A DNA stretch of 63,974 nt, filler included, from an uncultured Myxococcia bacterium (lineage in GTDB: Bacteria > CAZTWC01): NCBI GenBank assembly GCA_964617105.1. It is 3 parts of 3 records of this genome, joined end to end, with 100 filler letters (N's around TTAATTAATTAA, not from the genome) between each part and the next. Parts side by side here need not be neighbours in the genome. Positions count along the whole stretch, not along the records: positions 1 to 22,721 come from CAZTWC010000026.1; 2 more parts are not named here. One strand, written 5' to 3'. Position numbers and translations under genes: made by a program. This document shows, piece after piece, positions 3-56,050 of the stretch. How positions within the stretch are numbered: position 1 is the first letter of the stretch; the number at the start of each line of letters is the position of its first letter. The notes beneath the pieces were generated by a model that was given only the letters and a program-made list of their open reading frames with translations, searched no databases and was not told the DNA's origin.

Positions 3-1040
3 ACTTTTGTGGGACCCAGGGCATCTTCGATTCTCTCTATGGGAGACAAAGCCACGGCCAGGAAAACCATGAAGTTGGCTGGGTTGGAGCCGATTCCTGG
101 TTCTGAAGGCGTGTTAAATACGGTGCAGGAAGCCCGAGAGTTTGCCGAACATATAAATTATCCGGTGTTGTTGAAAGCCAGTGCTGGCGGCGGCGGTAAA
201 GGGATGCGGTTAGTGGAGGAGGAGGCTTGCTTAGAGGCGGCATTTATTGAAGCCAGTATGGAGGCGGAAAAGGCTTTTGGCAATCCAGCGCTTTATATGG
301 AAAAATTCATTACCGGCGGCCGTCATATCGAGTTCCAGGTATTGGTGGATCATTTTGGCAATGCTGTTCACCTGGGTGAGCGGGAATGTTCGGTTCAGAG
401 GCATCACCAAAAACTGGTGGAGGAATCGCCTTCTCAGGCGATTAGCAGTGAAACTCGGCAAAGTTTGGGAGAAAAAGTAGCCCGGGTTGCGGCTAAAATA
501 GGTTACTATAATGCCGGAACTGTTGAGTTCTTAATGACTCCCCAGGGGGAACTCTATTTTATGGAGATGAATACTCGCCTGCAGGTGGAGCATCCAGTGA
601 CCGAGATGGTTACCGGGGTGGATATTGTACAGGAGCAGATTCGCATCGCCGCTAACCAGCCGCTTGCTTTGCGGCAGGAAGATATTTGCTTTCAGGGGTC
701 GGCTATTGAGGTAAGGATCAATGCCGAGGATCCTTTTGAAGATTTTCGGCCTTCGCCAGGCACGGTGGAGATATTCAAGGTTCCGGAAAAAGAGGGGAGT
801 ATCAGGTTAGATACCCATGTCGAGGAAGGGTACACCATACCTCCATACTATGACTCCATGATTTGTAAACTAATTGCCCATGCCAAAACTCGCCCAGAGG
901 CTATCGAGTTGATGCTAAAGACCCTGGACTCTTTTGAAATTGGCGGAGTGAAGACCACCATACCTATTCATAAGAAGATATTGGATTCAGATTTGTTTAG
1001 GGGTGGGGAGTATAATACCACAATATTAGATCACATATAA
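3..1040 (+). CDS. accC: Biotin carboxylase subunit (5' end outside the window)
   Basis: ATP-grasp motifs KASAGGGGKGMR, RHIEFQV, ERECSVQRHHQK, EMNTRLQVEHPVTE, RINAED and PPYYDSMICK. The frame is open back to the window edge. Confidence 0.93.
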   Translation, partial: TFVGPRASSILSMGDKATARKTMKLAGLEPIPGSEGVLNTVQEAREFAEHINYPVLLKASAGGGGKGMRLVEEEACLEAAFIEASMEAEKAFGNPALYMEKFITGGRHIEFQVLVDHFGNAVHLGERECSVQRHHQKLVEESPSQAISSETRQSLGEKVARVAAKIGYYNAGTVEFLMTPQGELYFMEMNTRLQVEHPVTEMVTGVDIVQEQIRIAANQPLALRQEDICFQGSAIEVRINAEDPFEDFRPSPGTVEIFKVPEKEGSIRLDTHVEEGYTIPPYYDSMICKLIAHAKTRPEAIELMLKTLDSFEIGGVKTTIPIHKKILDSDLFRGGEYNTTILDHI

Positions 1041-1041
1041 A

Positions 1042-1142
1042 CGGGCGACGATAGCGGCGCATCTGAGGCCGAAGGTCATCCCTTTAGGGGCATGAACCTG
1101 GTTAATCGTCGGGCTACTGATCGCTAGTTTAACTAATATTTG
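1042..1142 (+). repeat. Intergenic palindromic repeat family A, copy 1
   Basis: CGGGCGACGATAGCGGCGCATCT resembles the blocks at 2931 and 3165. Positions 1086-1142 (AGGGGCATGAACCTGGTTAAT...ATCGCTA...AACTA.TATTTG) match 3356-3413. Confidence 0.8.
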
Positions 1143-1201
1143 ATATGTAATGGTAATGATAACGGGCATCCTATAAAAAATATGAAAAGGAACTTTAAAT
1201 A

Positions 1202-2923
1202 ATGGCTAGAGTAATCTTGCAGGATATTGGTTCAGGGCGGGAAACTATTTTTTCCGCCAAGGAATATGATCAGAACACCTCTTATATGAAAAAGTTGGAG
1301 GAGGATATCCAGCGGAAAAAGGATGAGGTTAAACAGGGTTGGGGTCAGAAATATATAGATCGGGTTCATGCTAAAGGGAAGTTGACCGCCTGGGAACGCA
1401 TCGAGTTGTTAAAAGATCCGGGGAGCCAGGTGTTCCCCATCGGCACTTTTGTCAACTATGGCATCACCTTTGACGGTGGACGCAAATCCCCGGGGGCTGG
1501 GGTGGTCACTGTTTTTGTCAAGGTCTGTAACCGGTACACCATTGTTATTGCCAATGATAATACCGTTGGTTCCGGTTCCTGGTGGCCGCAGACCCCGGAG
1601 AAAATTGAGCGGGCTCAAGAGATTGCCTTGCGTTTGAAAGTACCGGTAATCTATATGGTGGATTGCAGTGGACTATATTTGCCGGAACAGGCCCGTACCT
1701 TTCCAGGTAAAAGTGGGGCTGGTCATATATTTAAAATGAACAGCCTGCTCTCCGCCAACCATGTACCTCAAATTGCCGGAGTGTTTGGCGACTGCATTGC
1801 TGGTGGCGGTTATATGCCGATCATAAGTGATCGGGTTTATATGACCGAGCAAGCCTATATGGTGATTGCTGGCGCCGCCCTGGTTAAGGGAGCCAAGTCC
1901 CAGAATATCACCTCTCTTACGATCGGAGGGCCCGATGTTCACTGCCATCTTTCCAACTGTGCCGATTTCCGGGTACCTGACGACAAAACCATGATCAAAT
2001 TTATCCGCCGCGATATTGAACAGTTACCCTCCAAGGCTGGAGAGTATTATATGTTTGGCGGTGAACCTTTAGCTCCTCGCTACAATTACCGGGAGTTGAG
2101 CGGGTTTTTTCCTCCCGACCACCGCATCCCCTACGATATGCGTCAGGTTATAGCCCGTCTTCTGGATATGAGCCTTTTTTGGGAGTTGATGCCCAGGCAG
2201 GGGAGAGAGATGATCTGCGGTATCGGCAAGATAAATGGATTATATGTGGGTATTATCGCCAATAATCAGTCTCTTACCGAGCACCCGGTTTCCAGGAGTC
2301 AAAAAAGACCGGGCGGTATTTTATACCAGCAGGGGATTGCTAAGATTTCTCTTTTCTCCAGGTGCTGTAACGATGACGGTATTCCCATTATTTGGCTGCA
2401 GGATATATCTGGATTTGATATAGGCCTGGAGGCGGAGAAGGAGGGTTTGCTGGGTTTTGGCTCCAACCTGCTCTATACCAACTCCACCAATAGTGTACCC
2501 ATGATTACCGTGTTGCTGCGCAAGGCTTCTGGCGCAGGTTATTATGCTATGGCGGGGCACCCATACGATCCAGTGTTGCAACTTTCTACTCCCATAACCA
2601 GATTGGCGGTGATGGAGGGCAAGACTCTATCTATCGGAGCTTTCAGGACCAAATTAGACGATAATTTCAATATTATCGCAGACAACCAGGAGGAGTACGA
2701 CAAGATTGAGGAGGGAATGCTGGAGGTGGAAGAGAGGATCAGCCAGGATATGTACCCGCTAAACGCAGCTCGCCAGATGGATACTGATGAGGTGGTATTG
2801 ATGCCAGAGATCAGACCCTATTTGGAGGCAGTGGTGGAGATGTGCTACCAGAGTATTGGGTATAGGAGGTTGAAGAATCCGCGGATTTGGAGTATGCACG
2901 ATATTGATGTACTCATGAGATAA
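1202..2923 (+). CDS. Acyl-CoA carboxylase carboxyltransferase subunit (MCC-beta / glutaconyl-CoA decarboxylase-like family)
   Basis: [70 protein letters not shown]. Lies between accC and accB. Confidence 0.88.
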
Positions 2924-2929
2924 CTGCTG

Positions 2930-3413
2930 GCGGGCAACGATAATGGCGCATCTACGTTGTTGCCCGAAATGATTTAATCCTCGACGTATAATTTATACNN
3001 NNNNNNNNNNNNNNNNNNNNNNNNNNNNNNNNNNNNNNNNNNNNNNNNNNNNNNNNNNNNNNNNNNNNNNNNNNNNNNNNNNNNNNNNNNNNNNNNNNGC
3101 CTGCGGTTAAATCATTTCGGGCGCCTAGTATCTGCACCATTCTCGTTGCCCGCAGGTTATTTGTGATAGCGGCGCATCTATGGACGCTGACGTAGGAGGT
3201 GATCCCTTTAGGGACGTTGCGTTGAGCGATTTAATCCTCGACGTATAATTTATACGCCTGCGGTTAAATCATTTCGGGCGCCTAGTATCTGCACCATTCT
3301 CGTTGCCCGCGGTTTTGGCAATGATAGCGCGCATCTACGGACGAATTAACCAGAAAGGGGCATGAACCTGGTTAATTTGCGGGCGACTTATCGCTAACTA
3401 AAACTAGTATTTG
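2930..3413 (+). repeat. Cluster of modular palindromic repeats (family A), spanning a 100-N gap at 2999-3098
   Basis: Nested inverted arms GCGGGCAACGA/TCGTTGCCCGC, GCCCGAAATGATTTAA/TTAAATCATTTCGGGC and CGTATA-ATT-TATACG. The core plus right arm is repeated at 3228-3310. Confidence 0.85.
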
Positions 3414-3463
3414 CTTTACTTTGTTGCGCTTACGGTTTGTGAAAGTTTATTTTGGAGCATAAT

Positions 3464-4075
3464 ATGAAAGATAATATCAAAGAAGTGCTTTTTCAGCTGG
3501 ATGAGCAATCTCCGGATGAATATATTGTTAAGTCACCGGCGCCGGGACGCTATAGTCACATTCCTTATCGGGGCAGTTTTATTGAACCGGGCCAATACAC
3601 CGGCCAGTTGCAGCAACTGAATACCACCTATAAACTGAAAATGCCTCCTGGTATCAGCGGGGTGGTGAGCCAGGCTTTGCTTAATGACCAGATTGAGTTC
3701 GTGGAATACGGTCAGCCTCTTTTCCGGCTTAGCACCGAGGCGGGTAAGTTCTCTTCAGAGCATCAAAAACCGGCTCAAGCACCAGGTATTACCGATGAGA
3801 GTGACAGAGTTCCTGAGGGTATGGTGGGAGTCACCTCACCCACTGACGGGGTTTTTTATATGCGTCCAAATCCTCAGTCTCCACCTTATGCCACCGAGGG
3901 TGAGGAGGTGGTTGAGGGAGATGTGCTTGGTTTGGTGGAGGTGATGAAGTGTTTTAACAAGATTAAACTAAATGACCTGGGCGGCTCGCAAAAGGGAAAG
4001 ATAAAAAAAATATTTAAAGATGATGCCGCTGAAGTCAAATTTGGTGAACTGCTATTTATAATTGAACCGGGTTAG
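3464..4075 (+). CDS. accB: Biotin carboxyl carrier protein with two biotinyl-like domains
   Basis: The C-terminal domain has SPTDGVFY..P.P, EVMKCFN (biotin Lys) and VKFGELLF. The N-terminal domain has SPAPG...VEYGQPLF but no MK. GGAG RBS at 3454. Confidence 0.88.
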   Translation: MKDNIKEVLFQLDEQSPDEYIVKSPAPGRYSHIPYRGSFIEPGQYTGQLQQLNTTYKLKMPPGISGVVSQALLNDQIEFVEYGQPLFRLSTEAGKFSSEHQKPAQAPGITDESDRVPEGMVGVTSPTDGVFYMRPNPQSPPYATEGEEVVEGDVLGLVEVMKCFNKIKLNDLGGSQKGKIKKIFKDDAAEVKFGELLFIIEPG

Positions 4076-4077
4076 GG

Positions 4078-4875
4078 TTAGTGCCACTTAGCCCAATTGG
4101 GGCGGCGCTTTTCAAAAAAGGCATTCATCCCTTCCTGTCCCTCTTCAGAAACCCTTAACTTGGCGATCAGTTCAGCGGTAAAGCTGGTTGAATCACTGAG
4201 GGTTATGTCTGATACTCGGTGAATCAATTCTTTAACCGCACTAAGTGCCTGAGGACCGCTGGACATCAGCATCCGCAATATTTGTTCCACCCGTGAATTA
4301 AGGAGTTCCCGGGTTACCACTTCGGTAACCAGGCCGTATTCCCGAGCCCGGTCTGCCGAAATTCGCTCTCCGCTCAAGAACAGGTAACGGGTATTGGCTT
4401 CACCCACCTTTTTGATCACAAAGGGACTGATAACGGCCGGAACCAACCCGATTTTTACTTCGCTGAAGGAAAATTCACTTAGATGAGCTGCCACCACGAT
4501 ATCACAGGCTGCCACCAATCCCACGCCTCCACCAATAGTGGCGCCGTTGACTTTTGCCACGGTGGGGTGTTTGAAACGGTAGAGATTGTGCATAACCTCC
4601 GCCATTTTCAAAGCCCCATCCAGGTTTTGGTCGTAAGTGTTGTCTTTCATCTGACTCATGTAAGAGAGGTCGGCGCCGGCGCAAAATGCCTTTCCCTGGC
4701 CGGTTATTACCAGGACCCTTATCTGATCCTGTTCCGATAATATTTTCAGTGCTTCCAGAAGTTCATCGATCATCTGGTTATTAAAAGCATTGCGTATATC
4801 GGGCCGGGCCAGAGTAATGGTGCCAACCTTTTCTTCAATGTTTAATTTGATGGTGGTGAATGTTTGTTTTTCCAT
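4078..4875 (-). CDS. Enoyl-CoA hydratase family, methylglutaconyl-CoA hydratase (LiuC)-like
   Basis: RPDIRNAFN, FCAGADL, GGGVGLVAACD, FSEVKIGLVPAVISPFV, R.SEEGQEGMNAFFEKRRPNW. Last gene of an HMG-CoA-forming operon. Confidence 0.85.
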   Translation of the reverse strand: MEKQTFTTIKLNIEEKVGTITLARPDIRNAFNNQMIDELLEALKILSEQDQIRVLVITGQGKAFCAGADLSYMSQMKDNTYDQNLDGALKMAEVMHNLYRFKHPTVAKVNGATIGGGVGLVAACDIVVAAHLSEFSFSEVKIGLVPAVISPFVIKKVGEANTRYLFLSGERISADRAREYGLVTEVVTRELLNSRVEQILRMLMSSGPQALSAVKELIHRVSDITLSDSTSFTAELIAKLRVSEEGQEGMNAFFEKRRPNWAKWH

Positions 4876-4887
4876 GGGGACTTCTCT

Positions 4888-5280
4888 TTAAATTGGCACG
4901 CATTTGTACCCATACTTGATAATTGCCGCTTCACAGTCTTCGCTGATGCGCCTAAATTCCAACTTGACCGGCATACCTATCTTGAGATCCTCTTCAGGGC
5001 AGTCGGCTATTTGGGTGGTGATGGTAACGCCATCTTTTAGTTTGACCAGGCCTACCGCATATGGAGTTTGGTCTTCAAAACCTGTGGGTGCAACGTGGAT
5101 AACCGTGTAGGTGACCACTTCCCCTTCGGTGTTAAGGGTTACATTTTCAAACTCCCGTGATTTGCATTCATTGCAGATCAAGCGAGGGGGAAAGAAAATC
5201 TTACCGCATTTTGTGCATTTGCCGGCTTCATATCTATATCTTTGCGGTATTTCCCGCCAGTAGATTGCAGATGTGGACAT
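4888..5280 (-). CDS. DUF35 Zn-ribbon/OB-fold scaffold protein
   Basis: WREIPQRYR, CTKC...FPPR..CNEC, GEVVTYTVIH, PYAVGLV, IGMPVKLEFRR, YGYK. Adjacent to the thiolase. Confidence 0.92.
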   Translation of the reverse strand: MSTSAIYWREIPQRYRYEAGKCTKCGKIFFPPRLICNECKSREFENVTLNTEGEVVTYTVIHVAPTGFEDQTPYAVGLVKLKDGVTITTQIADCPEEDLKIGMPVKLEFRRISEDCEAAIIKYGYKCVPI

Positions 5281-5282
5281 GT

Positions 5283-6440
5283 TTAAACCTCCTCTAGAAT
5301 GTGGATGGTTGAACTACCACAAGTTCCGCCCATATTCTGGGCTAATCCCCTGCGGACGTTCTTTAATTGTCTGTCTCCTGCCTCTCCCCTTAACTGCTCC
5401 ACCACTTCACAGACTTGCGCCACACCGGTGGCTCCCACTGGATGGCCTTTTGATTTCAATCCACCCGAAGTATTGATGGGTTTTTTACCATCAAGGGCAG
5501 TAAAACCGGATTCCACCGCTTTGCCTCCCTGTCCTTTTTCCACGAAGCCCAGGGCCTCGATAGCGCAGATTTCTGCAATGGTAAAACAGTCGTGCACTTC
5601 GGCGAAATCGATATCATCTGGTCCTACTCCTGCCATTTCATAGGCAGACTTGGCAGCGTTGGCCACTGCATTAAAGAAGGTAATATCCTCACGTTGGCTC
5701 AAGGCGATACAATCGGTAGCCATACCAATACCAGTCACTTTGATGGCTTTATTTTTGGTGAATTTACCCACCATATCCAGGGGGCAGAGGATAACCGTTG
5801 CCGCTCCATCAGTAACCGGGGAGCAGTCAAAAATTCTCAATGGGTCAGCCACCATAACCGAGTTTTCCACAGTTTCGGGAGTAATCTGCATGGGGAATTG
5901 GGCATTGGGATTTTTAGAACCATTGAAATGGTTTTTCACCGCCACCATTGACAATTGCCGACGGGTAGTGCCATATTTTTCCATGTGAGCCCTGGCCATC
6001 AGGGCGTAAAGTCCGGGGAAGGTAATGCCATTGTAGGCTTCATATTCCCGGTCTGAGGCAGCCGCCAAGCCGTAGGTGGCTCCGCCGCCGTCAATATCGC
6101 ACATTTTTTCCACTCCACTTACCATGACAATATCGTTCAGGCCAGAAGCCACATCGATATAACCCTGGCGAAAAGCCAACCCACCTGAAGCACAGGCGGA
6201 TTCGACCCGGGTGGCGGGAATGGGCGCACAGCCCAGATAATCGGTTAGCATGGAAGCCAGATGTTCCTGGCCCACAAAAAGACCGCCTGACATACAGCCG
6301 ATATAAAGGGAATCAATTTTGTCAATACCGGCATCATCCATTGCTGTCAGGGCGGATTCGGTAAAGATGTCTCGAAGGGAACTGTTCCATAACTCCCCCC
6401 ACTTGTTGATGCCGACACCTATTACTGCAACATCTCTCAT
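5283..6440 (-). CDS. Acetoacetyl-CoA thiolase, archaeal/SCP2-type
   Basis: RVESACASG (catalytic Cys), [36 protein letters not shown] upstream. Confidence 0.92.
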
Positions 6441-6539
6441 AGCCAATCTCCAAATTAACCCAGTCTTTAAATGCCGGGACTTAGGTGGTTATCTGCTGGC
6501 TTCCGGTTTAAAGCGAAAGCCAACTTTTTTCTAAAGTAA

Positions 6540-7580
6540 CTATTTTCTAATCTTTTTTCTATATTTGGCGTACGCGCCATATTCCAAATAGATCTGGTTT
6601 TTATCTAAATAGTCGGTGGTCTTAGGAGCCAGGTCGCGCACCTGGTCTATCATATCGGTGACTTTCCAAATAAAACCGTCACTACCTGAACCAGAACCGT
6701 ATGAAACCATCAGGATCAAATCTCCTGGTTTAGCAATATCCAGGGTAGAAGAGAGTCCCAGGGGTGAGGCGCCGGAATAGGTATTACCCAATCTGGGAGA
6801 GAGCCATCCTGGTTCCATTTGCTCATCTTTGAATCCCAGTTTGCGGCCAGCCCGTTGAGGAAACTTACCGTTGGGTTGGTGAAAGACAGCGTAGGTAAAG
6901 TCCGCTGGTTTCAGGTCAGCCATCTCCATTATGTTGGTGGCGCAACTCAAGGTATGTTTAAAGTAGGCTGGTTCACCAGTAAACCGGCCGGCGTGTTTGG
7001 GATAGAACTGATATTCCCGCCTCCAGAAATCTGGAGTATCGGTCATGTATGAATTGGTATGCAAACATTCGGCTATTACATTCTGCTCCCCAAAAATATA
7101 ACTGGCAGCACCAGCAGCAGCAGAATACTCCAGAGCATCACCAGGGGCCCCCTGTGAGGTGTCTGCTCCTATTCCCAGCCCGTATTTTACCTCTCCCGCT
7201 TTAACCAGGCTCATACTGACAAACATCCCCTCTGAACCAGCCTTACAGGCAAATTCAAAGTCGGCGCAGTGGATATCCGGAGTGGCGCCGATAGCTTCTG
7301 CCACTACTGTCCCACTGGGTTTAACAGCATAGGGATGTGATTCGGAACCGATGTAAATTGAACCGATATCTGTGGGGTCGATTTTAGCCCGTTTGAGTGC
7401 GTTACGAGTGGCTTCTACTGACATGGTGATTACATCCTGGTCAGGACCGGGCACTGATTTTTGTTTTAACAGCAGCCCCTTTTTGTAACTGGGAGCATCC
7501 GCACCCCACACCTTGGCGATCTCTTCCACTTTAATGCGGTACTTGGGGATATAACTTCCGTATCCGACAATTCCGACCAT
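6540..7580 (-). CDS. mvaS: Hydroxymethylglutaryl-CoA synthase, archaeal-type
   Basis: GIVGYGSYIPKYRI, GSESHPYAVKPS, EFACKAG (catalytic Cys), DTPDFWRR, GRFTGEPAYFKH, FHQPNGKFP, GNTYSG, SYGSGSGSD. Length 346 aa, as in the archaeal enzymes. Confidence 0.93.
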   Translation of the reverse strand: MVGIVGYGSYIPKYRIKVEEIAKVWGADAPSYKKGLLLKQKSVPGPDQDVITMSVEATRNALKRAKIDPTDIGSIYIGSESHPYAVKPSGTVVAEAIGATPDIHCADFEFACKAGSEGMFVSMSLVKAGEVKYGLGIGADTSQGAPGDALEYSAAAGAASYIFGEQNVIAECLHTNSYMTDTPDFWRREYQFYPKHAGRFTGEPAYFKHTLSCATNIMEMADLKPADFTYAVFHQPNGKFPQRAGRKLGFKDEQMEPGWLSPRLGNTYSGASPLGLSSTLDIAKPGDLILMVSYGSGSGSDGFIWKVTDMIDQVRDLAPKTTDYLDKNQIYLEYGAYAKYRKKIRK

Positions 7581-22721: not shown

Positions 22722-22821
22722 NNNNNNNNNNNNNNNNNNNNNNNNNNNNNNNNNNNNNNNNNNNNTTAATTAATTAANNNNNNNNNNNNNNNNNNNNNNN
22801 NNNNNNNNNNNNNNNNNNNNN
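22722..22821. other. Artificial scaffold linker
   Basis: 44 N + TTAATTAATTAA (stops in all six frames) + 44 N. The genes on both sides are truncated. Confidence 0.95.
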
Positions 22822-23298
22822 AACGTGGATGTGAAGCCACCAGGATTGCAAAGCCGGCACCAAAGGGGTTATCTGTTGGCCAGGGATCAAAGAGGCTAAC
22901 CCCAGGGCGGCAATAGCCATGCTCAAACCCAAAAATCCTCCCAATTTGAACTGATATTTTTTCTCAACATAGATATTTACCAACACTATTCCCCAGGAGA
23001 AAAACACCAAAGACTCATACAGGTTGGTAAAGGGAGGATGGCTCATAAAAGTGTTAAACCAGGGCCATCCCTGCAGGATAATTCCTTCGGCTGCCTCAAA
23101 GGCTTCAACTTCTACTATGCCGGCTTCCATCCATCTGATCAGCAATCCCAGGCTGTGAAAACTAAATCCTGCTATGGAGAGATATAGAGATGTCCGATCC
23201 ATTTGCCATCGAGGATTGGCCAAAATAACCAGGTAAAGGGCCAGGGTGATAAAATATATTACCAGGGTTAAAAAAAATAGTTGTTGGCTTATTAGCAT
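22822..23298 (-). CDS. ccsA: Cytochrome c biogenesis protein CcsA/ResC (system II), 3' truncated
   Basis: HPPFTNLYESLVFFSW, PLVPALQSWWLHIHV, multiple TM helices. Confidence 0.9.
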
Positions 23299-23372
23299 AG
23301 GACAATCCAAAAATCCAGTTTGATTCACCCGGATTTACCCGGGGGTTGAGAAGGTAGCGGTTTGACAAAAAT

Positions 23373-23861
23373 CTATTCGGACTTCAGGCTGTGCCGAAAG
23401 TTTAAAAATTTTTTCTCCCAATCAAAGGGTAATAGAGAGGGATCATCTTTGGTATGGCAACGCCAGCAAATCTCCTGACCTTTTTTTCTCAATCCTAAAA
23501 ATTTGGCCAGCACCTTGTCTTTCATAATGTTGGAGCGCTGGTAAAAATGCCCTGCTCCATGACAACTCTCACATTGAACACCCTGTAAATGTTCCTTTTG
23601 TCCCAGGCTATGGCAAAAAAGACAACGGTTATTTTGACGATATTTTGGGGGTAAAACCTGGTGGCTCTTGGCATGAGGCGTGTTTTCCCATACCTGAAAT
23701 TGAGTCTCATGACAAGATCGGCAACTTTCCGCTCCAACTCGGGTATCCAAAGGGTAAAAAGCAGATAAAAGAGGCGATGGCAAAAAGAATATCATCAATA
23801 TGACCATGGCCAAAGATAATGCTACTATAATTGGTATTTTGAATATTCTGGAAACTCTCAT
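23373..23861 (-). CDS. Membrane-anchored tetraheme cytochrome c (c554-like)
   Basis: N-terminal hydrophobic segment; CRSCH, CLFCH, CESCH and CWRCH; VGAESC, W..TPHAKS, GVQCESCHG.G. ATGA overlap with the upstream gene. Confidence 0.87.
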   Translation of the reverse strand: MRVSRIFKIPIIVALSLAMVILMIFFLPSPLLSAFYPLDTRVGAESCRSCHETQFQVWENTPHAKSHQVLPPKYRQNNRCLFCHSLGQKEHLQGVQCESCHGAGHFYQRSNIMKDKVLAKFLGLRKKGQEICWRCHTKDDPSLLPFDWEKKFLNFRHSLKSE

Positions 23862-25489
23862 GAGATCAACTGTATCCCCCATTTGAGATTCTCCAGCATA
23901 ATAACTATGGAATAGAAGGCAAAGGCCAATACCCCTAACAGCACCACAATCATGGCAATAGACTGATAACTGGCCATGCTGCCGCCGGCTATCAGCCGGT
24001 GGGTCTTAATATAACTCTTAATGGCAAAATAAAAGATCAAACTGATTACCACCAGGGCAAAGAGCAATATTATGGTGCTTATTTTTGACTGCAACCGCGT
24101 TTTCCTCTCGTCCAAATGGGATTGCCTTAATGTAAAGGTGTCGAGCACCAGAGATTTTTGTGGATAGTTGGTTTTGATACGCTGCATAACCGCGGTCACG
24201 GTCTGTTCCAGCATCATTTTTTCGGTCTGTTTCTGCTCCACCAAATCTTTGACCAGGTCAAACACTTTTGCCCCACCGGAGAGGAGTTGAATATCCTGAA
24301 CCAGGTCGTCCAATTTGTCCACTTTGGTCATAGCACCGGAAAGAAAGACTAACCGGGTATTCTCATTGCCCGTCGGCACATTAAAATTGAGAAATATACG
24401 GGCTGCTAAAAAACCTTTCATCTGCCGCGGCACTTTAAAGGTGAAAGAGCCGGTGCCCTCCACAATCGGCCCCACCTTGTTCATTATTTTAATCCCTTTG
24501 TAGTAAAGATCCATGAACATTTCACCCTTTAACCTCAAAGTTTCAAAGAATACTTCCACATCCTGTCCCTTGGGGAAGATGGTTTTTTCCACCATGCTGA
24601 TAATCTGGCTGTGGCCTGGAGCCACCTCGATGCTGCCAGAAATTTTAGCTTTTTTTCCATCACTGGCGTTGATGAATAACCTTTCCGCTAATTTGGGAAA
24701 AAACTGAAAAACCCCCAGCCCGGTATGTTCATTGGTATAGATGGTATTTTTTATGCCCCTGACCTGAACTTCGGCGTAGATTGGATTGCCATCCAGGTCT
24801 CTGGCTAATACCAATACCGTGTTGTTCAAATTTGGCAGCAGAATACCGCTCTCAGGATATATGGTTAGGTTAAAGGTGGTTCTTTCCTCTTTCTCCTTTT
24901 TTGCTTTTTTTTCACCCTGATCATCACCTTTTTTCTCAGTCATTTTCAGCATGCCGCCCAAAGTATGATAATCAACATCCTCATCCTTTAGAGAAAGAAA
25001 ATTACCAGTAGGAAAAGATTTCAAAATCTCTACCGGTACTTCGGTGCTGTCCTCTCCCTTGGGAAATTTAACTGCCACCCGCAAAGTATATCTCCCGGGC
25101 GGAAGTTTTGGAGTGGTAAAGTTGGCCTCCAGAGTTCGGCCCCTGGGCTCTTCACCCTGAAAAAGTTCAATAGGCTCCATCCCCTGGCGCAGCAATTCTA
25201 TGGTGCCCTGAATTCCTATAGAGAAACGGTTCAGGGAGTTGTCAAATATCGCCACCCTCAGGCAGGAAGGCTCTCCAGCCACCATTTTGCCGGGTCCGTA
25301 TAAGCGCATGGAAAAGGGAACCGAACGGGTAGAGATGTAAATAGAAAAACAGATCAGCAATGAAAGCACCGCCATGGTCAAACCCACTGCCACTTTTACT
25401 ATGGTGTCTTTGGGACTGTAGGTGTTTTCTTGGGTGTCATCTTCCTGCTCATTAAAATCATCATCATCAATTTCATATTGATTCGCCAT
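23858..25489 (-). CDS. Membrane protein with a large periplasmic Ig/macroglobulin-like region, function unknown
   Basis: Acidic N-terminus, one TM, beta-rich region (GPGKMVAGEPSCLRV, PKLPPGRYTLRV, IYPESG.L, TNEHTGLGVFQF) and two C-terminal TMs. Confidence 0.55.
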   Translation of the reverse strand: MANQYEIDDDDFNEQEDDTQENTYSPKDTIVKVAVGLTMAVLSLLICFSIYISTRSVPFSMRLYGPGKMVAGEPSCLRVAIFDNSLNRFSIGIQGTIELLRQGMEPIELFQGEEPRGRTLEANFTTPKLPPGRYTLRVAVKFPKGEDSTEVPVEILKSFPTGNFLSLKDEDVDYHTLGGMLKMTEKKGDDQGEKKAKKEKEERTTFNLTIYPESGILLPNLNNTVLVLARDLDGNPIYAEVQVRGIKNTIYTNEHTGLGVFQFFPKLAERLFINASDGKKAKISGSIEVAPGHSQIISMVEKTIFPKGQDVEVFFETLRLKGEMFMDLYYKGIKIMNKVGPIVEGTGSFTFKVPRQMKGFLAARIFLNFNVPTGNENTRLVFLSGAMTKVDKLDDLVQDIQLLSGGAKVFDLVKDLVEQKQTEKMMLEQTVTAVMQRIKTNYPQKSLVLDTFTLRQSHLDERKTRLQSKISTIILLFALVVISLIFYFAIKSYIKTHRLIAGGSMASYQSIAMIVVLLGVLAFAFYSIVIMLENLKWGIQLIS

Positions 25490-28362: not shown

Positions 28363-28950
28363 CTATCCCATCAATTGCTGGTACTTTTCTCCAGAACTCT
28401 TGAGAATTTTTTTATGCAGGCTGTTACCGTGAGAGTCCATGGTTACTATAGCAGGAAAATCTTTTACCTCGATAATCCACATAGCTTCGGGAACCCCGAA
28501 CTCCTTTAATTTTAGCACATCTTTTACTTGCAATACGCTATCGGCCAGAGTTACAGCCATTCCGCCAATAGCATGCAGATAAACGGCCCCGGTTTTTTTC
28601 AGGCCCGCAGAAGTTATCTCTCCCATGCCACCTTTGCCGATCACTGCTCTTACCTGGTATTTGTCTATCACTTTTGCCTGATAAGGTTCCTCCCGGCTGC
28701 TGGTGGTAGGACCGGCTGCCACAAATCGCCATTTAGGCTCGCTTTCGGTGCCGTCATTGGCCACCACTGGGCCGCAGTGATAGATGGCGCTCTGGTCCAG
28801 TACCTGATTCAACTCTTCCGCTGGATTTTCCACCATATATTTGTGAGCCGCATCTCTGGCGGTCATAATGGTTCCGGTAAGCAGGACTTCATCGCCTACT
28901 TTCAACTTTCTTATCTCCTCCTCAGGGATTGGCACTTGTAATTTATTCAT
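28363..28950 (-). CDS. Class I fumarate hydratase/tartrate dehydratase, beta subunit
   Basis: LKVGDEVLLTG.I.TARDAAHK, IYHCGPV, AGPTTSSR, IGKGG, PEAMW, DSHGNSLH. Confidence 0.92.
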   Translation of the reverse strand: MNKLQVPIPEEEIRKLKVGDEVLLTGTIMTARDAAHKYMVENPAEELNQVLDQSAIYHCGPVVANDGTESEPKWRFVAAGPTTSSREEPYQAKVIDKYQVRAVIGKGGMGEITSAGLKKTGAVYLHAIGGMAVTLADSVLQVKDVLKLKEFGVPEAMWIIEVKDFPAIVTMDSHGNSLHKKILKSSGEKYQQLMG

Positions 28951-29818
28951 AAGTCACCTCCTGGTTCTGAAAAGTCATAACTCCCCGCCTGAATGCCCAA
29001 CAGATATAACTGACCGAAACGAAAAAACAGGCTGGGAGGCGGTGTCTTTTGCCAATTTTCACTCCCATAGTGGTGGTTTTTCCTCCAAGGCCCATGGGGC
29101 CAATACCCAAAGAGTTTAATTCTTCGTATAGCCTGCTCTCCAAAGCAGACAAATCTTTATCCGGATTGGTATCATCCAGTTTACGAAACAACTGCTCTTT
29201 TGATTCCAGAAAAGAGGTCCCCCGGTCGCCGCCAATACCCACGCCAATACATCCTGCCGGAGCGCAGCCCTGACCCTGAGCCTGGTAAACTGCATCAATT
29301 ACACATCTCCTGACCCCCTCCAGATCCCGGCCGGCCTTAAGTTCCGAATCGGGCAGCCTATACTGGGCGCCTACATTTTCACTGCCTCCACCTTTTTGCA
29401 TCAGGCGCAGCACCAGTTTGTCCTCTTCGATAGCATGAAAATGGATATAGGGAAGGCCAATGCCGATATTGTTGCCAGTATTTTCTCCACTTACCGGATC
29501 TACGGCATTGGGCCGCAAATAGTTCTTTTGGGTAGCCTGTGCAGTGGCCTTTTCGATAATCTCTTTCAGGTGCGATGGTTTGAAAGCCGGGCCGTGATCC
29601 ACGTAAAACACCAGCGCGCCGGTATCCTGGCACATCGGTTTTGATTCTTTAGTAGCGGTATCTACATTGGCTAAAATCAAACTCAAAATATTTTTTGCTG
29701 CCCCATCTTCATTGTCCCTGGCCTTTTCCAAGGCATTCCTCACATCAGTGGGTAGCGTGCTGGTGGTTCTGCGGATCAACTCCTCCACCGGCTCTACCAG
29801 TTTATCACTACAACTCAT
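28943..29818 (-). CDS. Class I fumarate hydratase/tartrate dehydratase, alpha subunit (Fe-S)
   Basis: PMCQDTG, LRPNAV, KGGGSEN, GC.P..GVGIGG, NSLGIGPMGLGG, CWA.RR. Confidence 0.92.
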   Translation of the reverse strand: MSCSDKLVEPVEELIRRTTSTLPTDVRNALEKARDNEDGAAKNILSLILANVDTATKESKPMCQDTGALVFYVDHGPAFKPSHLKEIIEKATAQATQKNYLRPNAVDPVSGENTGNNIGIGLPYIHFHAIEEDKLVLRLMQKGGGSENVGAQYRLPDSELKAGRDLEGVRRCVIDAVYQAQGQGCAPAGCIGVGIGGDRGTSFLESKEQLFRKLDDTNPDKDLSALESRLYEELNSLGIGPMGLGGKTTTMGVKIGKRHRLPACFFVSVSYICWAFRRGVMTFQNQEVTYE

Positions 29819-38129: not shown

Positions 38130-38249
38130 TTTAATCTGCCTAGTTGAAATTGATAGAAAACCAAAATATAATTTATTATGATATTATTTTGATAATCTGA
38201 CAAGAGAAAATTGGGAATTCAACTGCATCTACACAAGAGAACTATTTTG

Positions 38250-42375: not shown

Positions 42376-45300
42376 ATGCAGCACTATTACAAATATTTAT
42401 GGCCCCTCATGGCTATCATAGTTATTTCCGCCATTTTTATTCCCCTTATAGTTTTTTTGCCCTCCCCTGACCAGCCAGTGGACAATCCGGTTAAATACAT
42501 GACAAAGCACCGGGATCACCTCGATCATTCTCACTTTTTTAATACCCCCTTAAAAAATGGACCCCAGGTTACCAGAGCCTGCCTCAAGTGCCATAAAGAA
42601 ACTGCCCGGGAGGTAATGAGCACCAGTCACTGGCAGTGGTTGGGAGATAAAGTGAAAATTCCAGGTCATAAAGAACCGATGCGCATAGGAAAAAAGAATT
42701 TAATTAATAATTATTGTATTGGCATCACCGGCAATTGGGCTTCGTGCACCTCCTGCCATGCTGGCTATGGCTGGAAAGACAATTCCTACGATTTTAACCG
42801 GCAAGAAAATGTTGATTGCCTTGTTTGCCACGACGGTTCTGGCACCTACTACAAGCAAAAAGCGGGTCTGCCCGGAAAAAAAGTGGACCTCCTTGCAGTT
42901 GCTAAGAGTGTTGCCAGGCCAAAGGGCGAAAATTGCGGTTACTGCCACTTTTCAGGAGGGGGCGGCATGGGGGTAAAGCATGGCGATCTGGATTCCAGTA
43001 TCAATTATCCTCCCGAACGGGTTGATGTTCACATGGGCAGATACAAAATGACCTGTAGCGATTGCCACAAAACCGAAAAACATCTCATTAAGGGCCGTTC
43101 CATGGCGGTCAGCGTTGATAAAAAGAACAAAGTATATTGCACAGACTGTCATACTCAAAAGCCCCATGATGATCAGCGCCTCAATACCCATACCAACTCC
43201 ATTGGTTGTAAAACCTGCCACATCCCCCTGGTTGCCCAACGTATCCCCACCAAAACTTATTGGGATTGGTCAAAGGCGGGCCAGGACATTAAGGAGGATC
43301 CTCATAATTACTTAAAGAGAAAGGGCGAGTTTAAGTATGCCTTTAACCTGAAGCCGGAATATTATTGGTCCAATGGTACAAATTTCCGCTATATCCTTGG
43401 CGATAAAATAGACCCCGAAGCAGTTACTAAAATAAATGCGCCCCGGGGTGATATAAAAGACAATAATTCCAAGATAGACCCCTTTAAGGTTCACCGGGGA
43501 AAACAGGTTTATGATAAGAAAAACAAATATTTCTTACTGCCCACAACTGCAGGCAAAGGCGGTTATTGGCACAATTTCGATTGGGACCAGGCCTTGCGTT
43601 TGGGAGCAGAGGCCACCGGAATAAATTATAGCGGTGAATACGGTTTTGCTAAAACCGAGATGTTCAAGGCTCTCTCCCATATGGTAGCCCCCAAGAGAAT
43701 GGCCCTGGGATGTACAGACTGTCATGGAAACGATAGTCGATTCAACTGGGAAAAATTGGGCTATGAAGGCGATCCGGCCTTCAGTGGGGAACGGTATAAA
43801 ATGCACCCTCCCTTCCCGCTACTCGATGGGCAGGGAGAAAAAGTGTTACACAGCGGCGGCCCTCTATCCACCATGAAGACCTGCGGTAAATGCCACGACA
43901 CTGACTATATTGCCAGGCACAACTATCATGCCCAGGCTAGCCTTCTGAATAATGACCAAACCATCCCACCAGAAAGTGCCAGTGAAGATCTCTCTGGCCA
44001 GTGGAGACAGAGTGCCTTCAAAAGAATTAACGGGAATATGGAGGTTAACTGTCTTATCTGCCACCTGAAAAGCCCGGACAATCGGGAACGAGTTAAAGCA
44101 ATGCAAAATGAGCAGTTTGAATGGTCCATTACTGCAACCCTGGCCAATAAGGGCATTGTAAAGAGAGATTCTGCCATGCTCTGGCGCTGGCAGGAAGAAA
44201 ATTTTAACCTTGACGGCACCCTGAAAAAGGGAACGGTAAATCTTAGATCACCACAAAATGAAAATTGTGGTCTTTGCCACGGCCTGGTTCATAACGGCCA
44301 GAAGCCTGTAACCCTTGAGAAAAATCGGGCGGCAAATTGGAACTCAGCCTTTACGGGCCAGATTATTTCTCCCCAGAACATCTTTGATTCCGGCCTGAAT
44401 ATCAAAGGAAAAAAACAATTATCCAGACCCTGGGATATCCATGCCGCCCGCATGCTCAATTGCACCGCCTGCCACCATTCTTTAAACAATCCCTTTTACA
44501 ATTACCCGCAACAGAACTCGAGAACAACAACTCTCAGCCACTTGATCTACGACCGCCGGGGGATGAATATAAACAAATTTTTATACCGACCCAGCCACCA
44601 GTTGGTTACTGGACAGAGTGCTAAAAAAACAGCGGCAGAACAATTTAGAGGGACCATGGGAGACTGCAGTACCTGCCATGATGCCCAAAAAGTGCACCAG
44701 TGGCTGCCATCCAAAGAACGCCACCTGCAAAAACTCAACTGCCAGGCTTGCCATGTTTCCAACCTCTACGCCCCTGCTCTGAGGCAAGTTGACTGGACCG
44801 TTATCAATAGAGAGGGAAAACCGCGGCTGGAATTCAGGGGTATTGAAGAGAATAGTGCAGCATTGAACTCTTTACAGACGGGTTATGCTCCTTTCCTGCT
44901 GCCACGCCAGGAAATATCCTCCAGGATTGCCTTGCATCCCTATAATCTGGTTGGGACCTGGTATTGGGCGGCGGGAAAAGAGGAAGGGCCCATCAATACT
45001 AGTTTATTAAAAGATGCTTTTTTGGAAAATGGCAATTACCGGCGGGTGGTCATGGATACATTTGATAAAGATGGCGATGGGCAATTGAACAGCAAGGAAT
45101 TGAAACTTGACACCAAGAAAAAAATCGAGGTAATCAAACAGAGGTTTGAACTGCTGGGTCTTAAAAATCCACAGATTAAAGCAAAACTCGAACCTTTTGA
45201 CGTTAACCATGGGATTTCCAAAGGCGCCTGGGCCATAAAAGAGTGTCAAACCTGCCACCAGGGCAAATCGCGCCTGGAAGAATCCATTGCGCTGGGTTCC

Positions 45301-45538
45301 TTTGCTCCTGGTAATATTATTCCAGATCTCCCCAAAGATACCAACCTCATGCTGGCTGGAAATTTTTCTTTTTCTGAAGAGGGTTCGCTATCTTTTAAAC
45401 CAGAGTACGATACCAAACATCTCTATATCTTTGGGCATTCCCGATGGATATATCTCGATATCTTAGGATTACTGCTGCTGATAATGCATTTTCTGGGAGC
45501 CTTTGCCCATGGAGGATTACGTTTTTATTGGGCCCGGG
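42376..45538 (+). CDS. Multiheme cytochrome c: octaheme tetrathionate reductase (Otr)-like domain + 7-heme domain + start of a membrane domain; 3' truncated
   Basis: 15 CxxCH motifs; Otr-like GKKNLINNYCI, KHGDLD, DVHM, WDWSKAG, PFKVHRGKQ.YD and SHMVAPK; EF-hand-like DKDGDGQLNSKE; terminal TM helix ending AHGGLR. Confidence 0.88.
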
Positions 45539-45638
45539 NNNNNNNNNNNNNNNNNNNNNNNNNNNNNNNNNNNNNNNNNNNNTTAATTAATTAANNNNNN
45601 NNNNNNNNNNNNNNNNNNNNNNNNNNNNNNNNNNNNNN
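45539..45638. other. Artificial scaffold linker
   Basis: 44 N + TTAATTAATTAA + 44 N. Confidence 0.95.
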
Positions 45639-54800: not shown

Positions 54801-56050
54801 AAGCCTTTTTAGATGTGGTGAAAAACTTTGATGAACCCATCAAGGCTCCAGTGATCCATATACCAGATGCAAAATACAACGACTTTAAAAACCGTAAGTT
54901 ATGGATCCCGTCAATGGTCAACACCGGCGGTCGTCTCTTTGCCTCCGCTTTCAGAGGGGCGGGTTACGATTGCGAAGCCCTACCCGATGAGACCACTGAA
55001 AGTTTCGAAATTGGCCGTAGCGTAACCAGGGGTAGCGAATGCCTGCCCACCTCGGTTACCATTGGAGCACTGCTTAGTAAATTTAAACAAATAGATGCCG
55101 ATCCCAAAAAGCATGCTTTTTTTATGGCCACTGCAGATGGTCCCTGCCGTTTCGGCCAGTATTCCCTGCTGCACCGGATGATCTTAAACCGTTACGGATA
55201 CCAGGATGTGCCCATCTTGTCCCCATCCTCCCAAAACTCTTACCAGGGAATGGATGAGTCTCTTCGGCGCCAAATGTGGCTGTGCGTCCTTTTTGCCGAT
55301 ATTTTCAACAAGATCTGCTGCCGCATCCGCCCCTACGAAGTGAACAAAGGAGAAACCGACCGGATAGCAGAGTATTACCTGTGCGAAATGGAAAAATGCC
55401 TCTCCCGAGGTGGAAATCATCAGGATCAAAACCAGGTGATGTTACGCTTTATGAATGCCGCCAGAAATATTCTGCGGGAAGATGTAAAAAAACCTTTGGT
55501 AGGTATTGTTGGTGAAATTTACGTACGCTGCAATCCCTTCTGCAATGAAGAAGTTATCAAATCCATAGAAAGATATGGCGGCGAAGCGTGGCTGGCCCCC
55601 ATGGCGGAATGGTTTCTATATACCGCCCACATGCAATCCTTTGCCTTTAAAAAGGGCTTGGTGAGCAAGTGGACCTCCTGGCCCAGCGTATTAAAAAATA
55701 TCTTTATGACTTACTCTGAACATAGTTGGTACAAACTGTTCAAGGAAATTCTGGCCGATAGGATGGAACCGCCTATTGAGGAAGCCTTGAAAGAGGGGGA
55801 AAAAGATATTCCCATCTATTTTGAAGGTGAAACCATATTAACTGTAGGCCGGGCCCGCATGTTTATTAAGGAAGGGGCAAATATGGTAGTGAACTGTGCT
55901 CCCTTCACCTGTATGCCGGGCACCATCTGTACCGCTCTGTTTCAAAAAATTCAAACCGAAACCGGAGTTCCCATTGTTAACATGTTTTACGATGGTGAAG
56001 GAGACCTCAACTCCAGACTAAGTGTATTTGTTAACAATCTAGCCCATTAA
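51840..56050 (+). CDS. Fused CoA-substrate-specific enzyme activase / DUF2229 / dehydratase-like protein (PlsA/Ger family), one gene across the gap at 54387-54396
   Basis: Two ASKHA activase domains (GIDIGS, CAAGTGSF twice, RCSVFAKSD/RCTVF, EIGGQDSK), FCFPIK..HGH, GRPYN, FSCGPDSF, ELDEH, ECLP, GPCRFGQY, VGEIYVR, PFTCMPG. About 1400 aa in total. Confidence 0.85.

Follow-up and report, generated by a model that had tools for sequence, protein, structure and literature searches.

A conserved cluster of archaeal-type HMG-CoA synthase, hydratase and biotin carboxylase genes: probably an undescribed link between leucine-type C5 acyl-CoAs and acetyl-CoA

The seven-gene locus

The locus described here lies at the start of a 63,974-nt stretch of DNA (the window) from an uncultured Myxococcia bacterium (GCA_964617105.1), and all gene coordinates are positions in this window. 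Three genes for a biotin-dependent enzyme on the plus strand converge on four minus-strand genes encoding 3-hydroxy-3-methylglutaryl-CoA (HMG-CoA) synthase (HMGCS), a thiolase, a DUF35 protein and a crotonase-family hydratase. Together the archaeal-type synthase complex, the hydratase and the new type of biotin carboxylase probably constitute an undescribed link between leucine-type C5 acyl-CoAs and acetyl-CoA, because the pairing is kept in many phyla mostly without the mevalonate pathway.

Genes were called from the list of open reading frames (ORFs) together with Pfam and NCBIfam profile scans of the window ORFs. The domain scan covered 46 ORFs; six ORFs of at least 150 aa overlapping longer ORFs were left out. 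All seven ORFs are present at the places, and with the domains, given by the first-pass annotation of this DNA, and the convergent layout that it described is borne out, with the accB stop (4075) and the crotonase stop (4078) 2 bp apart. The features are:

3..1040, plus strand: accC, biotin carboxylase (ATP-grasp), 5' end cut at the window edge; Pfam CPSase_L_D2 253.7 bits, Biotin_carb_C 123.1 bits; profile positions 101-443 of 451 matched in the NCBIfam accC models
1202..2923, plus strand: carboxyltransferase (CT), 573 aa; PF01039 338 bits
2924..3451, no strand assigned: repeat-rich spacer between CT and accB, 528 bp
3452..4075 (ORF from TTG; likely 3464..4075), plus strand: accB, two-domain biotin carboxyl carrier protein (BCCP); Biotin_lipoyl 41.6 bits (residues 127-204), TIGR00531 68.8 bits
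4078..4875, minus strand: crotonase-family hydratase, candidate 3-methylglutaconyl-CoA hydratase; ECH_1 199.8 bits
4888..5280, minus strand: DUF35 scaffold protein (zinc ribbon and OB fold); OB_ChsH2_C 82.4 bits, zf-ChsH2 37.5 bits
5283..6446, minus strand: archaeal-type acetoacetyl-CoA thiolase; NF004720 535 bits (cut-off 420), NF053570 531.2 bits (cut-off 600)
6540..7580, minus strand: archaeal-type HMGCS; TIGR00748 547.4 bits (cut-off 353)

The likely true start of accB is the ATG at 3464, which has GGAG upstream. No domain of HMG-CoA reductase (HMGR), HMG-CoA lyase or CoA-transferase is found among the 46 scanned ORFs, which extends to the scanned window what had been noted for the visible cluster (no lyase, reductase or AibA/AibB). 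The CoA_trans domain of AibA/AibB is among those missing from the scanned ORFs, and AibC is likewise absent from the window.

Conservation of the cluster in related loci

A family-alignment scan of species-representative genomes for the CT gave 80 loci, and tblastn searches with the seven proteins of the window gave their cluster content. A locus was treated as informative if it extended at least 6 kb upstream and 4 kb downstream of CT (n=39). The trio of HMGCS, thiolase and DUF35 genes lies no more than 10 kb from CT in 20 of these 39. Twelve loci (type A) have the order HMGCS-thiolase-DUF35-ECH-accC-CT-accB, ECH being the enoyl-CoA hydratase (crotonase) gene, and four (type B) have trio-accC-CT-accB-ACAD-ECH, with an acyl-CoA dehydrogenase (ACAD) gene added. 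The remaining linked informative loci comprise two with an opposite-strand arrangement and two without ECH. Over all 80 loci, trio genes are found in 30 and ECH is part of the cluster in 29.

The convergent layout of the window is seen at no other locus. The linkage of the two window operons, proposed in the first-pass annotation, is nevertheless upheld by this neighbourhood comparison, since the same seven genes make up one co-directional operon in many relatives. On this evidence from gene order, the seven genes are functionally linked. The record labels include Planctomycetota, Myxococcota, Eisenbacteria, Aminicenantes, KSB1, Acidobacteriota and others. Phylum labels of metagenome-assembled genomes (MAGs) are unreliable, the near-identical CTs of loci L007, L008, L012 and L019 carrying four different labels.

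The thiolase, HMGCS and DUF35 trio

By alignment, the HMGCS, thiolase and DUF35 proteins match the solved complex of Methanothermococcus thermolithotrophicus (PDB 6ESQ/6ET9), reportedly a channelling complex described by Voegeli et al. in 2018, with the catalytic motifs intact. Scores against the corresponding chains of 6esq/6et9 are 458.9 bits for the HMGCS (over residues 2-345), 373.5 bits for the thiolase and 109.3 bits for the DUF35 protein; the thiolase also reaches 380.7 bits against 7yvy. The catalytic Cys/Glu/His motifs of the HMGCS (EFACKAG, GSESHPYAV and FHQPNG) have identical residues in the solved archaeal chain, and the thiolase motifs [15 protein letters not shown] and GHPVGATG align to the same complex with the Cys, HDCF and GHP all there. 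The earlier statement that the motifs of the synthase (FACKAG, ESHPY, HQPN) and of the thiolase (SACASG, HDCF, GHP) are intact thus agrees with the alignment to the solved complex. The HMGCS is of the archaeal type and not MvaS, with 547 bits to TIGR00748 versus 99.6 bits to TIGR01835.

The HDxF motif and the Claisen residues are missing from the repurposed bacterial complexes PhlABC and SmaATase (PMC12960953). The window trio is set apart from these complexes because both are kept.

The biotin-dependent enzyme

The alpha subunit of the biotin enzyme is split, biotin carboxylase (accC) and BCCP being separate genes on either side of CT. The accC homologues are 51-68% identical and lie upstream of CT in 71 of the 80 related loci.

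The best solved relatives of the CT all score about 250 bits: the glutaconyl-CoA decarboxylase subunit GcdA (1pix, 251.6), AccD1 of Mycobacterium tuberculosis (250.9) and the beta subunit of methylcrotonyl-CoA carboxylase (MCC-beta) of Pseudomonas aeruginosa (247.4). The MCC-beta chains of P. aeruginosa, human and M. tuberculosis together span 245-251 bits, level with GcdA, and scores to the beta subunits of propionyl-CoA carboxylase (PCC-beta) and geranyl-CoA carboxylase (GCC-beta) are lower than to either. The motifs VDCSG and AGGGY are invariant in 23 of 23 aligned family members. GcdA has LNCSG/AGGGY and three MCC-beta-type chains have VDSGG/AGGAY. In residue-level alignments the window CT has features of GcdA that the MCC-beta chains do not show: the CSG/AGGGY motifs, an insertion that follows the ANNQ motif, and a C-terminal extension that can be aligned as far as residue 551. 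The resemblance of VDCSG/AGGGY to GcdA, remarked on in the first-pass annotation, therefore stands and extends to the insertion and the C-terminal extension.

Among database relatives of the CT, the best 120 are 68-73% identical, and their automatic names are inconsistent. In the CT tree the window protein is on a long lone branch without a supported sister. Taken together, the sequence comparisons place the CT in an uncharacterised family within the gamma-carboxylating MCC-beta/GcdA group, about 70% identical across phyla and equidistant from MCC-beta and GcdA. Members are currently named variously as propionyl-, acetyl- or methylcrotonyl-CoA carboxylase, and the family needs a name of its own.

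A membrane beta subunit (GcdB) is found neither among the 46 scanned window ORFs nor among ten neighbour ORFs at the accC-less loci L005, L014, L025 and L060. The idea that the accC-less loci encode sodium-pumping decarboxylases was rejected, as the ten scanned neighbour ORFs hold no beta-subunit domain. At L005 (2255..7926), in a mevalonate-only genome without HMGCS, an undecaprenyl-diphosphate synthase gene stands directly upstream of CT-accB and a gene for a single-chain methylmalonyl-CoA-mutase-like protein directly downstream.

The BCCP has the biotinylation motif EVMKCF, of which M161 and K162 are invariant in 34 of 34 aligned sequences. Its AlphaFold model has a pLDDT of 90.4. A fold search with this model matched the C-terminal domain to Escherichia coli BCCP (Z 15.3, rmsd 1.1, 80 residues aligned) and N-terminal residues 5-96 to the glycine-cleavage H protein (Z 8.5, rmsd 3.4, 87 aligned). 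The N-terminal 95 residues (window 3464..3745) are thus modelled confidently as an extra barrel-sandwich domain, which is found family-wide and has no conserved lysine. No BT domain was seen at the N-terminus in this whole-model search, in which the N-domain was never searched alone.

The 528-bp spacer between CT and accB, not mentioned in the first-pass annotation, contains a 60-nt direct repeat (3099 and 3256), a 28-nt one (2971 and 3228) and nested inverted repeats, and 110 of its bases read N (2999..3108). A nested palindromic element is present in it at least twice; in relatives CT and accB abut. The 40-nt core of the repeats occurs nowhere else in the window. A known RNA was rejected as an explanation, with no Rfam match and an ordinary fold energy (z 0.39).

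The crotonase and associated acyl-CoA dehydrogenases

The best NCBIfam model for the crotonase is gamma-carboxygeranoyl-CoA hydratase (AtuE, a LiuC paralogue) at 271.2 bits, below the cut-off of 426, and the protein falls below every other NCBIfam cut-off as well. Its best solved relatives are unannotated crotonases; no named LiuC or AUH chain is found at E<=1e-35. Orthologues in the clusters of relatives are 38-55% identical. The protein appears nearest to the AtuE/LiuC-type hydratases and is a candidate 3-methylglutaconyl-CoA hydratase.

The extra gene of the type-B operons, between accB and ECH, encodes an ACAD, and related ACADs, 47-51% identical, stand beside several type-A clusters. Genome G001, a complete 3.9-Mb chromosome carrying the cluster, was considered as a possible case without acyl-CoA dehydrogenase; this was rejected, as two long-type ACAD ORFs were found. 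At locus L136 (9258..13813) of the same genome, the gamma subunit of a 2-oxoacid:ferredoxin oxidoreductase forms a fusion with a GltD-like NAD(P)H flavoprotein, and genes for two crotonases and a long-type ACAD stand 2 kb away.

HMG-CoA enzymes in genomes carrying the carboxyltransferase

For genome context, 50 of the 80 loci were chosen, mostly on longer contigs, and the phyletic evidence is that of these relatives' genomes. Most are MAGs, and absences are provisional; the only whole-chromosome records are G001, G007 and G023 (chromosomes) and G008 (titled partial sequence). Archaeal-type HMGCS (E<=1e-60) was found in 35 of the 50, HMGR (PF00368) in 19, a match to the HMG-CoA lyase model at E<=1e-30 in 11, IspG in 35 and mevalonate kinase over cut-off in 12. 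At least one HMG-CoA-using enzyme (archaeal-type HMGCS, HMGR or lyase) is present in 47 of 50.

The archaeal-type HMGCS mostly occurs without a reductase: 27 of the 35 genomes have no HMGR, and 21 of those 27 have no lyase match either. Both reductase and lyase are missing in 10 of 13 type-A genomes. G001, one of these ten, has the cluster and IspG, with neither HMGR nor an HMGL-like domain on the chromosome. HMGR is present in 4 of 24 genomes with the linked cluster versus 15 of 26 without linkage (Fisher p 0.004). Because most cluster-bearing genomes (20/24) are without HMGR, the trio is not the head of a mevalonate pathway there. Whichever direction the pathway takes, archaeal-type HMGCS is unusable as a mevalonate-pathway marker in bacterial genomes.

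One locus, L030, has a GHMP kinase gene, an HMGR::MVK frame (MVK, mevalonate kinase) and then the seven genes, all on one strand. HMGR and mevalonate kinase share a 749-aa frame here (1896..4145), an apparent fusion directly upstream of the cluster, and G027, G041 and G034 have similar HMGR/MVK frames, 754-790 aa long.

Replacement of the lyase by the trio was rejected as a general rule, since five of seven type-B genomes have a lyase-like ORF. The lyase-like ORFs of these type-B genomes lie in an operon apart from the cluster. In one genome (G003) such a gene is part of an operon, L143 (7205..11334), with genes for a family III CoA-transferase and LeuC/LeuD-like dehydratase subunits beside that for the HMG-CoA-lyase-like protein. 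The same kind of neighbourhood is found in G013, G014, G016, G040 and G002. These operons may encode a free-acid HMG or methylglutaconate route.

Among the 15 genomes without archaeal-type HMGCS, the bacterial type (E<=1e-10) is missing in 13. Five genomes (G007, G023, G008, G010 and G012) carry the CT and have HMGR and mevalonate kinase over cut-off but neither IspG nor any HMGCS, archaeal or bacterial. Among them are two Candidatus Uabimicrobium chromosomes (G007, G023) and Acidobacteria bacterium Mor1 (G008). Crotonase homologues in these genomes are 45% identical to the window protein in G012, 39% in G007 and G023 and 33-34% in G010 and G008. Judged by gene content, carboxylation of 3-methylcrotonyl-CoA followed by hydration is apparently the only visible source of HMG-CoA in the five. 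It is mainly because these mevalonate genomes without HMGCS carry the CT that the CT family is read as carboxylating.

In a scan for carboxyltransferases in five genomes, no other PF01039 match came near the cluster CT in score. The one of those other matches that was compared with solved structures (L100) resembles PCC-beta; in G001 the cluster CT is the sole match.

Leucine biosynthesis genes

LeuA (TIGR00973) and LeuC (TIGR00170) are each over cut-off in none of the 50 genomes, with the same models over cut-off in 9 of 14 control genomes for each; in 30 of the 50 there is no LeuA match at all at E<=1e-20. The broader domain PF00682 has no match in the five type-A genomes tested (5/5) and matches in 14 of 14 controls. 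Among 151 class-level relatives of G001, 146 have PF00682 and two have the CT family. IlvC is over cut-off in 11 of the 50 genomes and in 7 of 13 type-A genomes, and LeuB in none of five type-A genomes. Each of five type-A genomes has 5-6 matches to POR_N (2-oxoacid:ferredoxin oxidoreductase). With IlvC missing in 39 of 50, at least part of the LeuA loss reflects a general branched-chain auxotrophy, and the gene content points to such auxotrophy for branched-chain amino acids in most carriers.

Interpretation of the pathway

The best reading, to which a probability of about 0.45 is given, is that the carboxylase and hydratase make HMG-CoA from 3-methylcrotonyl-CoA and that, where reductase and lyase are lacking, the HMGCS/thiolase complex is reversed to give three acetyl-CoA. 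From the gene identities, the conserved linkage and the phyletic patterns we infer what the carboxylase acts on, which way the flux goes and that the complex is reversed, as follows. The seven genes would constitute a single metabolic module centred on HMG-CoA. The three-subunit biotin enzyme (accC, GcdA-like CT and two-domain BCCP) would be an ATP-dependent gamma-carboxylase converting 3-methylcrotonyl-CoA, from leucine or isovalerate, to 3-methylglutaconyl-CoA, which the crotonase would hydrate to HMG-CoA. The archaeal-type thiolase/HMGCS/DUF35 complex would be the other enzyme at the HMG-CoA node. With HMGR present, both routes would supply mevalonate. With neither reductase nor lyase, the commonest state in cluster-bearing relatives, one of the two HMG-CoA-forming branches must run backwards; this would be the complex, turning HMG-CoA and two CoA into three acetyl-CoA. 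Leucine breakdown would then be finished without a lyase and with one extra thioester kept.

Reversal of the complex rather than of the carboxylase is favoured because accC is conserved, because the HMGCS-less mevalonate genomes need carboxylation and because Myxococcus xanthus needs a dedicated decarboxylase. PMC9636800 describes the reverse route of that species as using such a decarboxylase and not MCC. For the reversal itself there is the analogy of Desulfurella acetivorans, which reverts the citrate synthase of its tricarboxylic acid cycle (PMC9768450). By estimate, not computation, thiolysis would also roughly pay for the reversal of the synthase.

Several points weigh against this reading. 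In its motifs, one insertion and the C-terminal extension, the CT resembles GcdA, a decarboxylase subunit, more than MCC-beta. The type-B ACAD scores higher against Bcd-type enzymes (353-366 bits) than against isovaleryl-CoA dehydrogenases (254-266 bits), and in the five type-B genomes of seven with a lyase-like gene a lyase substitute would be unneeded. To our knowledge, reversal of HMG-CoA synthase has never been shown, and it requires formation of the acyl-enzyme from a free carboxylate. That the overall reaction lies near equilibrium is an estimate and not a computed value. The absences on which the reading draws are mostly those of MAGs and are provisional. Finally there is the pattern of leucine genes. 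Beside the 0/50 for both LeuA and LeuC, the two CT carriers among the 151 relatives of G001 are both among the five genomes without PF00682, the HMGL-like domain (Fisher p 8.8e-4), and four type-A genomes without an HMGL-like protein keep IlvC. A biosynthetic replacement predicts this pattern; a catabolic pathway must ascribe it to lifestyle.

Such a biosynthetic role, less likely than the catabolic one but a serious rival to it, would have the trio make HMG-CoA from three acetyl-CoA, the crotonase dehydrate it and the biotin enzyme decarboxylate 3-methylglutaconyl-CoA, with accC regenerating ATP from carboxybiotin. The resulting 3-methylcrotonyl-CoA would be reduced to isovaleryl-CoA for iso-branched lipids, and reductive carboxylation by a 2-oxoacid:ferredoxin oxidoreductase would give 2-oxoisocaproate and leucine, in place of the isopropylmalate pathway. 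It fits the absence of LeuA and LeuC, the lack of PF00682 in all five type-A genomes tested against its presence in 146 of 151 relatives and in every control, the retention of IlvC in 7 of 13 type-A genomes, the lack of LeuB over cut-off in type-A genomes (0/5), and the 5-6 POR_N matches. Also in its favour are the resemblance of the CT to GcdA, the HMGCS active site, which keeps the archaeal catalytic residues of the synthetic direction, and the known logic of the M. xanthus pathway, in which LiuC works in both directions (PMC9636800). On the other side, conservation of accC implies carboxylation coupled to ATP, in M. xanthus this step needs a decarboxylase of its own (PMC9636800), and 39 of 50 genomes are also without IlvC, making the LeuA loss at least partly general auxotrophy. 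The same CT family is moreover present in the five mevalonate-only genomes without any HMGCS, where anabolic action is impossible. We know of no physiological precedent for ATP synthesis by a reversed biotin carboxylase.

In its full form, for which the chances seem low, this proposal makes the operon a non-orthologous replacement of the isopropylmalate pathway, with three acetyl-CoA going via HMG-CoA to leucine and to the isovaleryl-CoA used for lipids, a GcdA-derived enzyme decarboxylating and accC making ATP by substrate-level phosphorylation. It would explain why canonical LeuA is found in 0/50 and why both CT carriers of the 151 Phycisphaerae-level genomes are among the five without a LeuA-type protein. 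The related claim of the first-pass annotation, that the carboxylase acts as a decarboxylase replacing AibAB, was not shown: accC lies beside CT in 71 of 80 loci and the CT occurs in the five HMGCS-less mevalonate genomes, although the absence of LeuA does fit an anabolic role.

Nothing would have to be reversed if HMGR were encoded elsewhere in the genome of the window organism, as it is beside the cluster at L030, and if HMG-CoA from acetyl-CoA and from leucine both fed isoprenoid synthesis. The one-strand array of GHMP kinase, HMGR::MVK fusion and seven genes at L030 is just such a case, and 8 of 35 genomes with archaeal-type HMGCS have HMGR. The lower frequency of HMGR in linked than in unlinked genomes (4/24 versus 15/26) and the lack of HMGR and mevalonate kinase among the scanned ORFs of the 64-kb window make it quite improbable here. 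The alternative raised in the first-pass annotation, with leucine and acetyl-CoA carbon both feeding isoprenoids, is literally realized in at least one relative. A different chemistry altogether is very unlikely. The carboxylase would then act on crotonyl-, geranyl-, acetyl- or propionyl-CoA and the trio on a substrate other than acetoacetyl-CoA, as in PhlABC/SmaATase. It agrees with the distance of the CT, only about 250 bits from every characterised enzyme, with a crotonase under every NCBIfam cut-off, and with the existence of bacterial trios with new functions (PMC12960953). The HDxF and Claisen residues missing in those repurposed complexes (PMC12960953) are present here, however, the HMGCS reaches 547 bits on the archaeal equivalog model (cut-off 353), and in 47 of 50 genomes the CT family is accompanied by HMG-CoA enzymes.

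If the complex runs backwards, as preferred here, it would be a new energy-saving end to leucine or isovalerate breakdown in many uncultured sediment phyla, and HMGCS would be the second 'irreversible' synthase reversed in vivo, after citrate synthase. If it is the carboxylase that runs backwards, there would be a new leucine route with an ATP-yielding decarboxylase. Leucine would apparently have to be the source of isoprenoids in some mevalonate-only bacteria without HMGCS, the phagocytic Candidatus Uabimicrobium among them, which is new if true. Neither the operon nor a reversed HMG-CoA synthase nor leucine synthesis via HMG-CoA is described in the literature searched, supplementary files being outside the search. 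This work adds the 50-genome cross-tabulation and the mevalonate genomes without HMGCS, and newly describes the missing LeuA, the resemblance of the CT to GcdA and the two domains of the BCCP.

Other features of the window

Elsewhere in the window, an ORF at 38211..38927 matches the NpmA family of 16S rRNA (adenine-1408) methyltransferases (194.6 bits), which includes aminoglycoside-resistance enzymes. Encoded at 42376..50777 are a 1072-aa multihaem cytochrome (MtrC/MtrF-like, with Cytochrome_cB domains) and, behind it, a 1708-aa protein that has a metal-binding motif of the MopE type; smaller multihaem cytochromes are encoded at 22774..23882 and a two-subunit class I fumarase at 28363..29818. 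The multihaem cytochromes, MopE-type protein and fumarase suggest an anaerobic metal- or electrode-respiring lifestyle.

At 51840..56050, neighbouring genes encode two 'CoA enzyme activase' proteins of the BcrAD/BadFG type (858 and 557 aa, with DUF2229); no dehydratase partner is found for them among the scanned window ORFs. The 647-aa GatB/GatE-like protein encoded at 57676..59619 carries a large insertion, since the GatB_N match spans residues 25-467 and is far longer than the 277-position profile.

Comparison with known systems

The trio resembles the M. thermolithotrophicus complex in its three adjacent genes and in keeping the catalytic Cys/Glu/His of HMGCS and Cys/HDxF/His of thiolase. 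It differs in being bacterial and joined to a hydratase and a biotin carboxylase, and 27 of the 35 relatives with archaeal-type HMGCS have no HMG-CoA reductase to accept the product.

The alternative isovaleryl-CoA pathway of M. xanthus uses MvaS, LiuC, AibA/B and AibC. The cluster and this pathway have in common an HMG-CoA synthase linked to a methylglutaconyl-CoA hydratase outside mevalonate synthesis, the hydratase of M. xanthus being bidirectional (PMC9636800). In the cluster, however, archaeal-type HMGCS, thiolase and DUF35 take the place of MvaS, and a biotin carboxylase that of AibA/B and AibC.

For the proposed reversal of HMGCS, the nearest parallel is the citrate synthase of the reversed oxidative tricarboxylic acid cycle (roTCA) of D. 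acetivorans, a thioester-hydrolysing Claisen/aldol synthase run in the cleavage direction in vivo (PMC9768450). HMGCS belongs to a different enzyme family and has a different substrate, and the comparison is an analogy only.

The Liu pathway of P. aeruginosa consists of LiuA, LiuB/LiuD (MCC), LiuC and LiuE (PMC9636800). The order inferred for the cluster is the same, with ACAD, gamma-carboxylase and hydratase leading to HMG-CoA, and an ACAD gene is in or beside the cluster in relatives. The CT, at about 247 bits from the P. aeruginosa MCC-beta, sets the cluster apart, as do the lack of LiuE in it and of a lyase match in 39 of 50 genomes. In comparison with MCC-beta of the LiuB/LiuD type, the window CT has DCSG/AGGGY in place of DSGG/AGGAY and the insertion shared with GcdA. 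GcdA (PDB 1PIX, 3GF3) is the best solved match, aligned over the full length (query 24-551) at 251.6 bits, and has the motifs, the insertion and the C-terminal extension in common with it. Both enzymes presumably catalyse vinylogous carboxyl transfer, but the window CT, unlike GcdA, is paired with an ATP-grasp biotin carboxylase.

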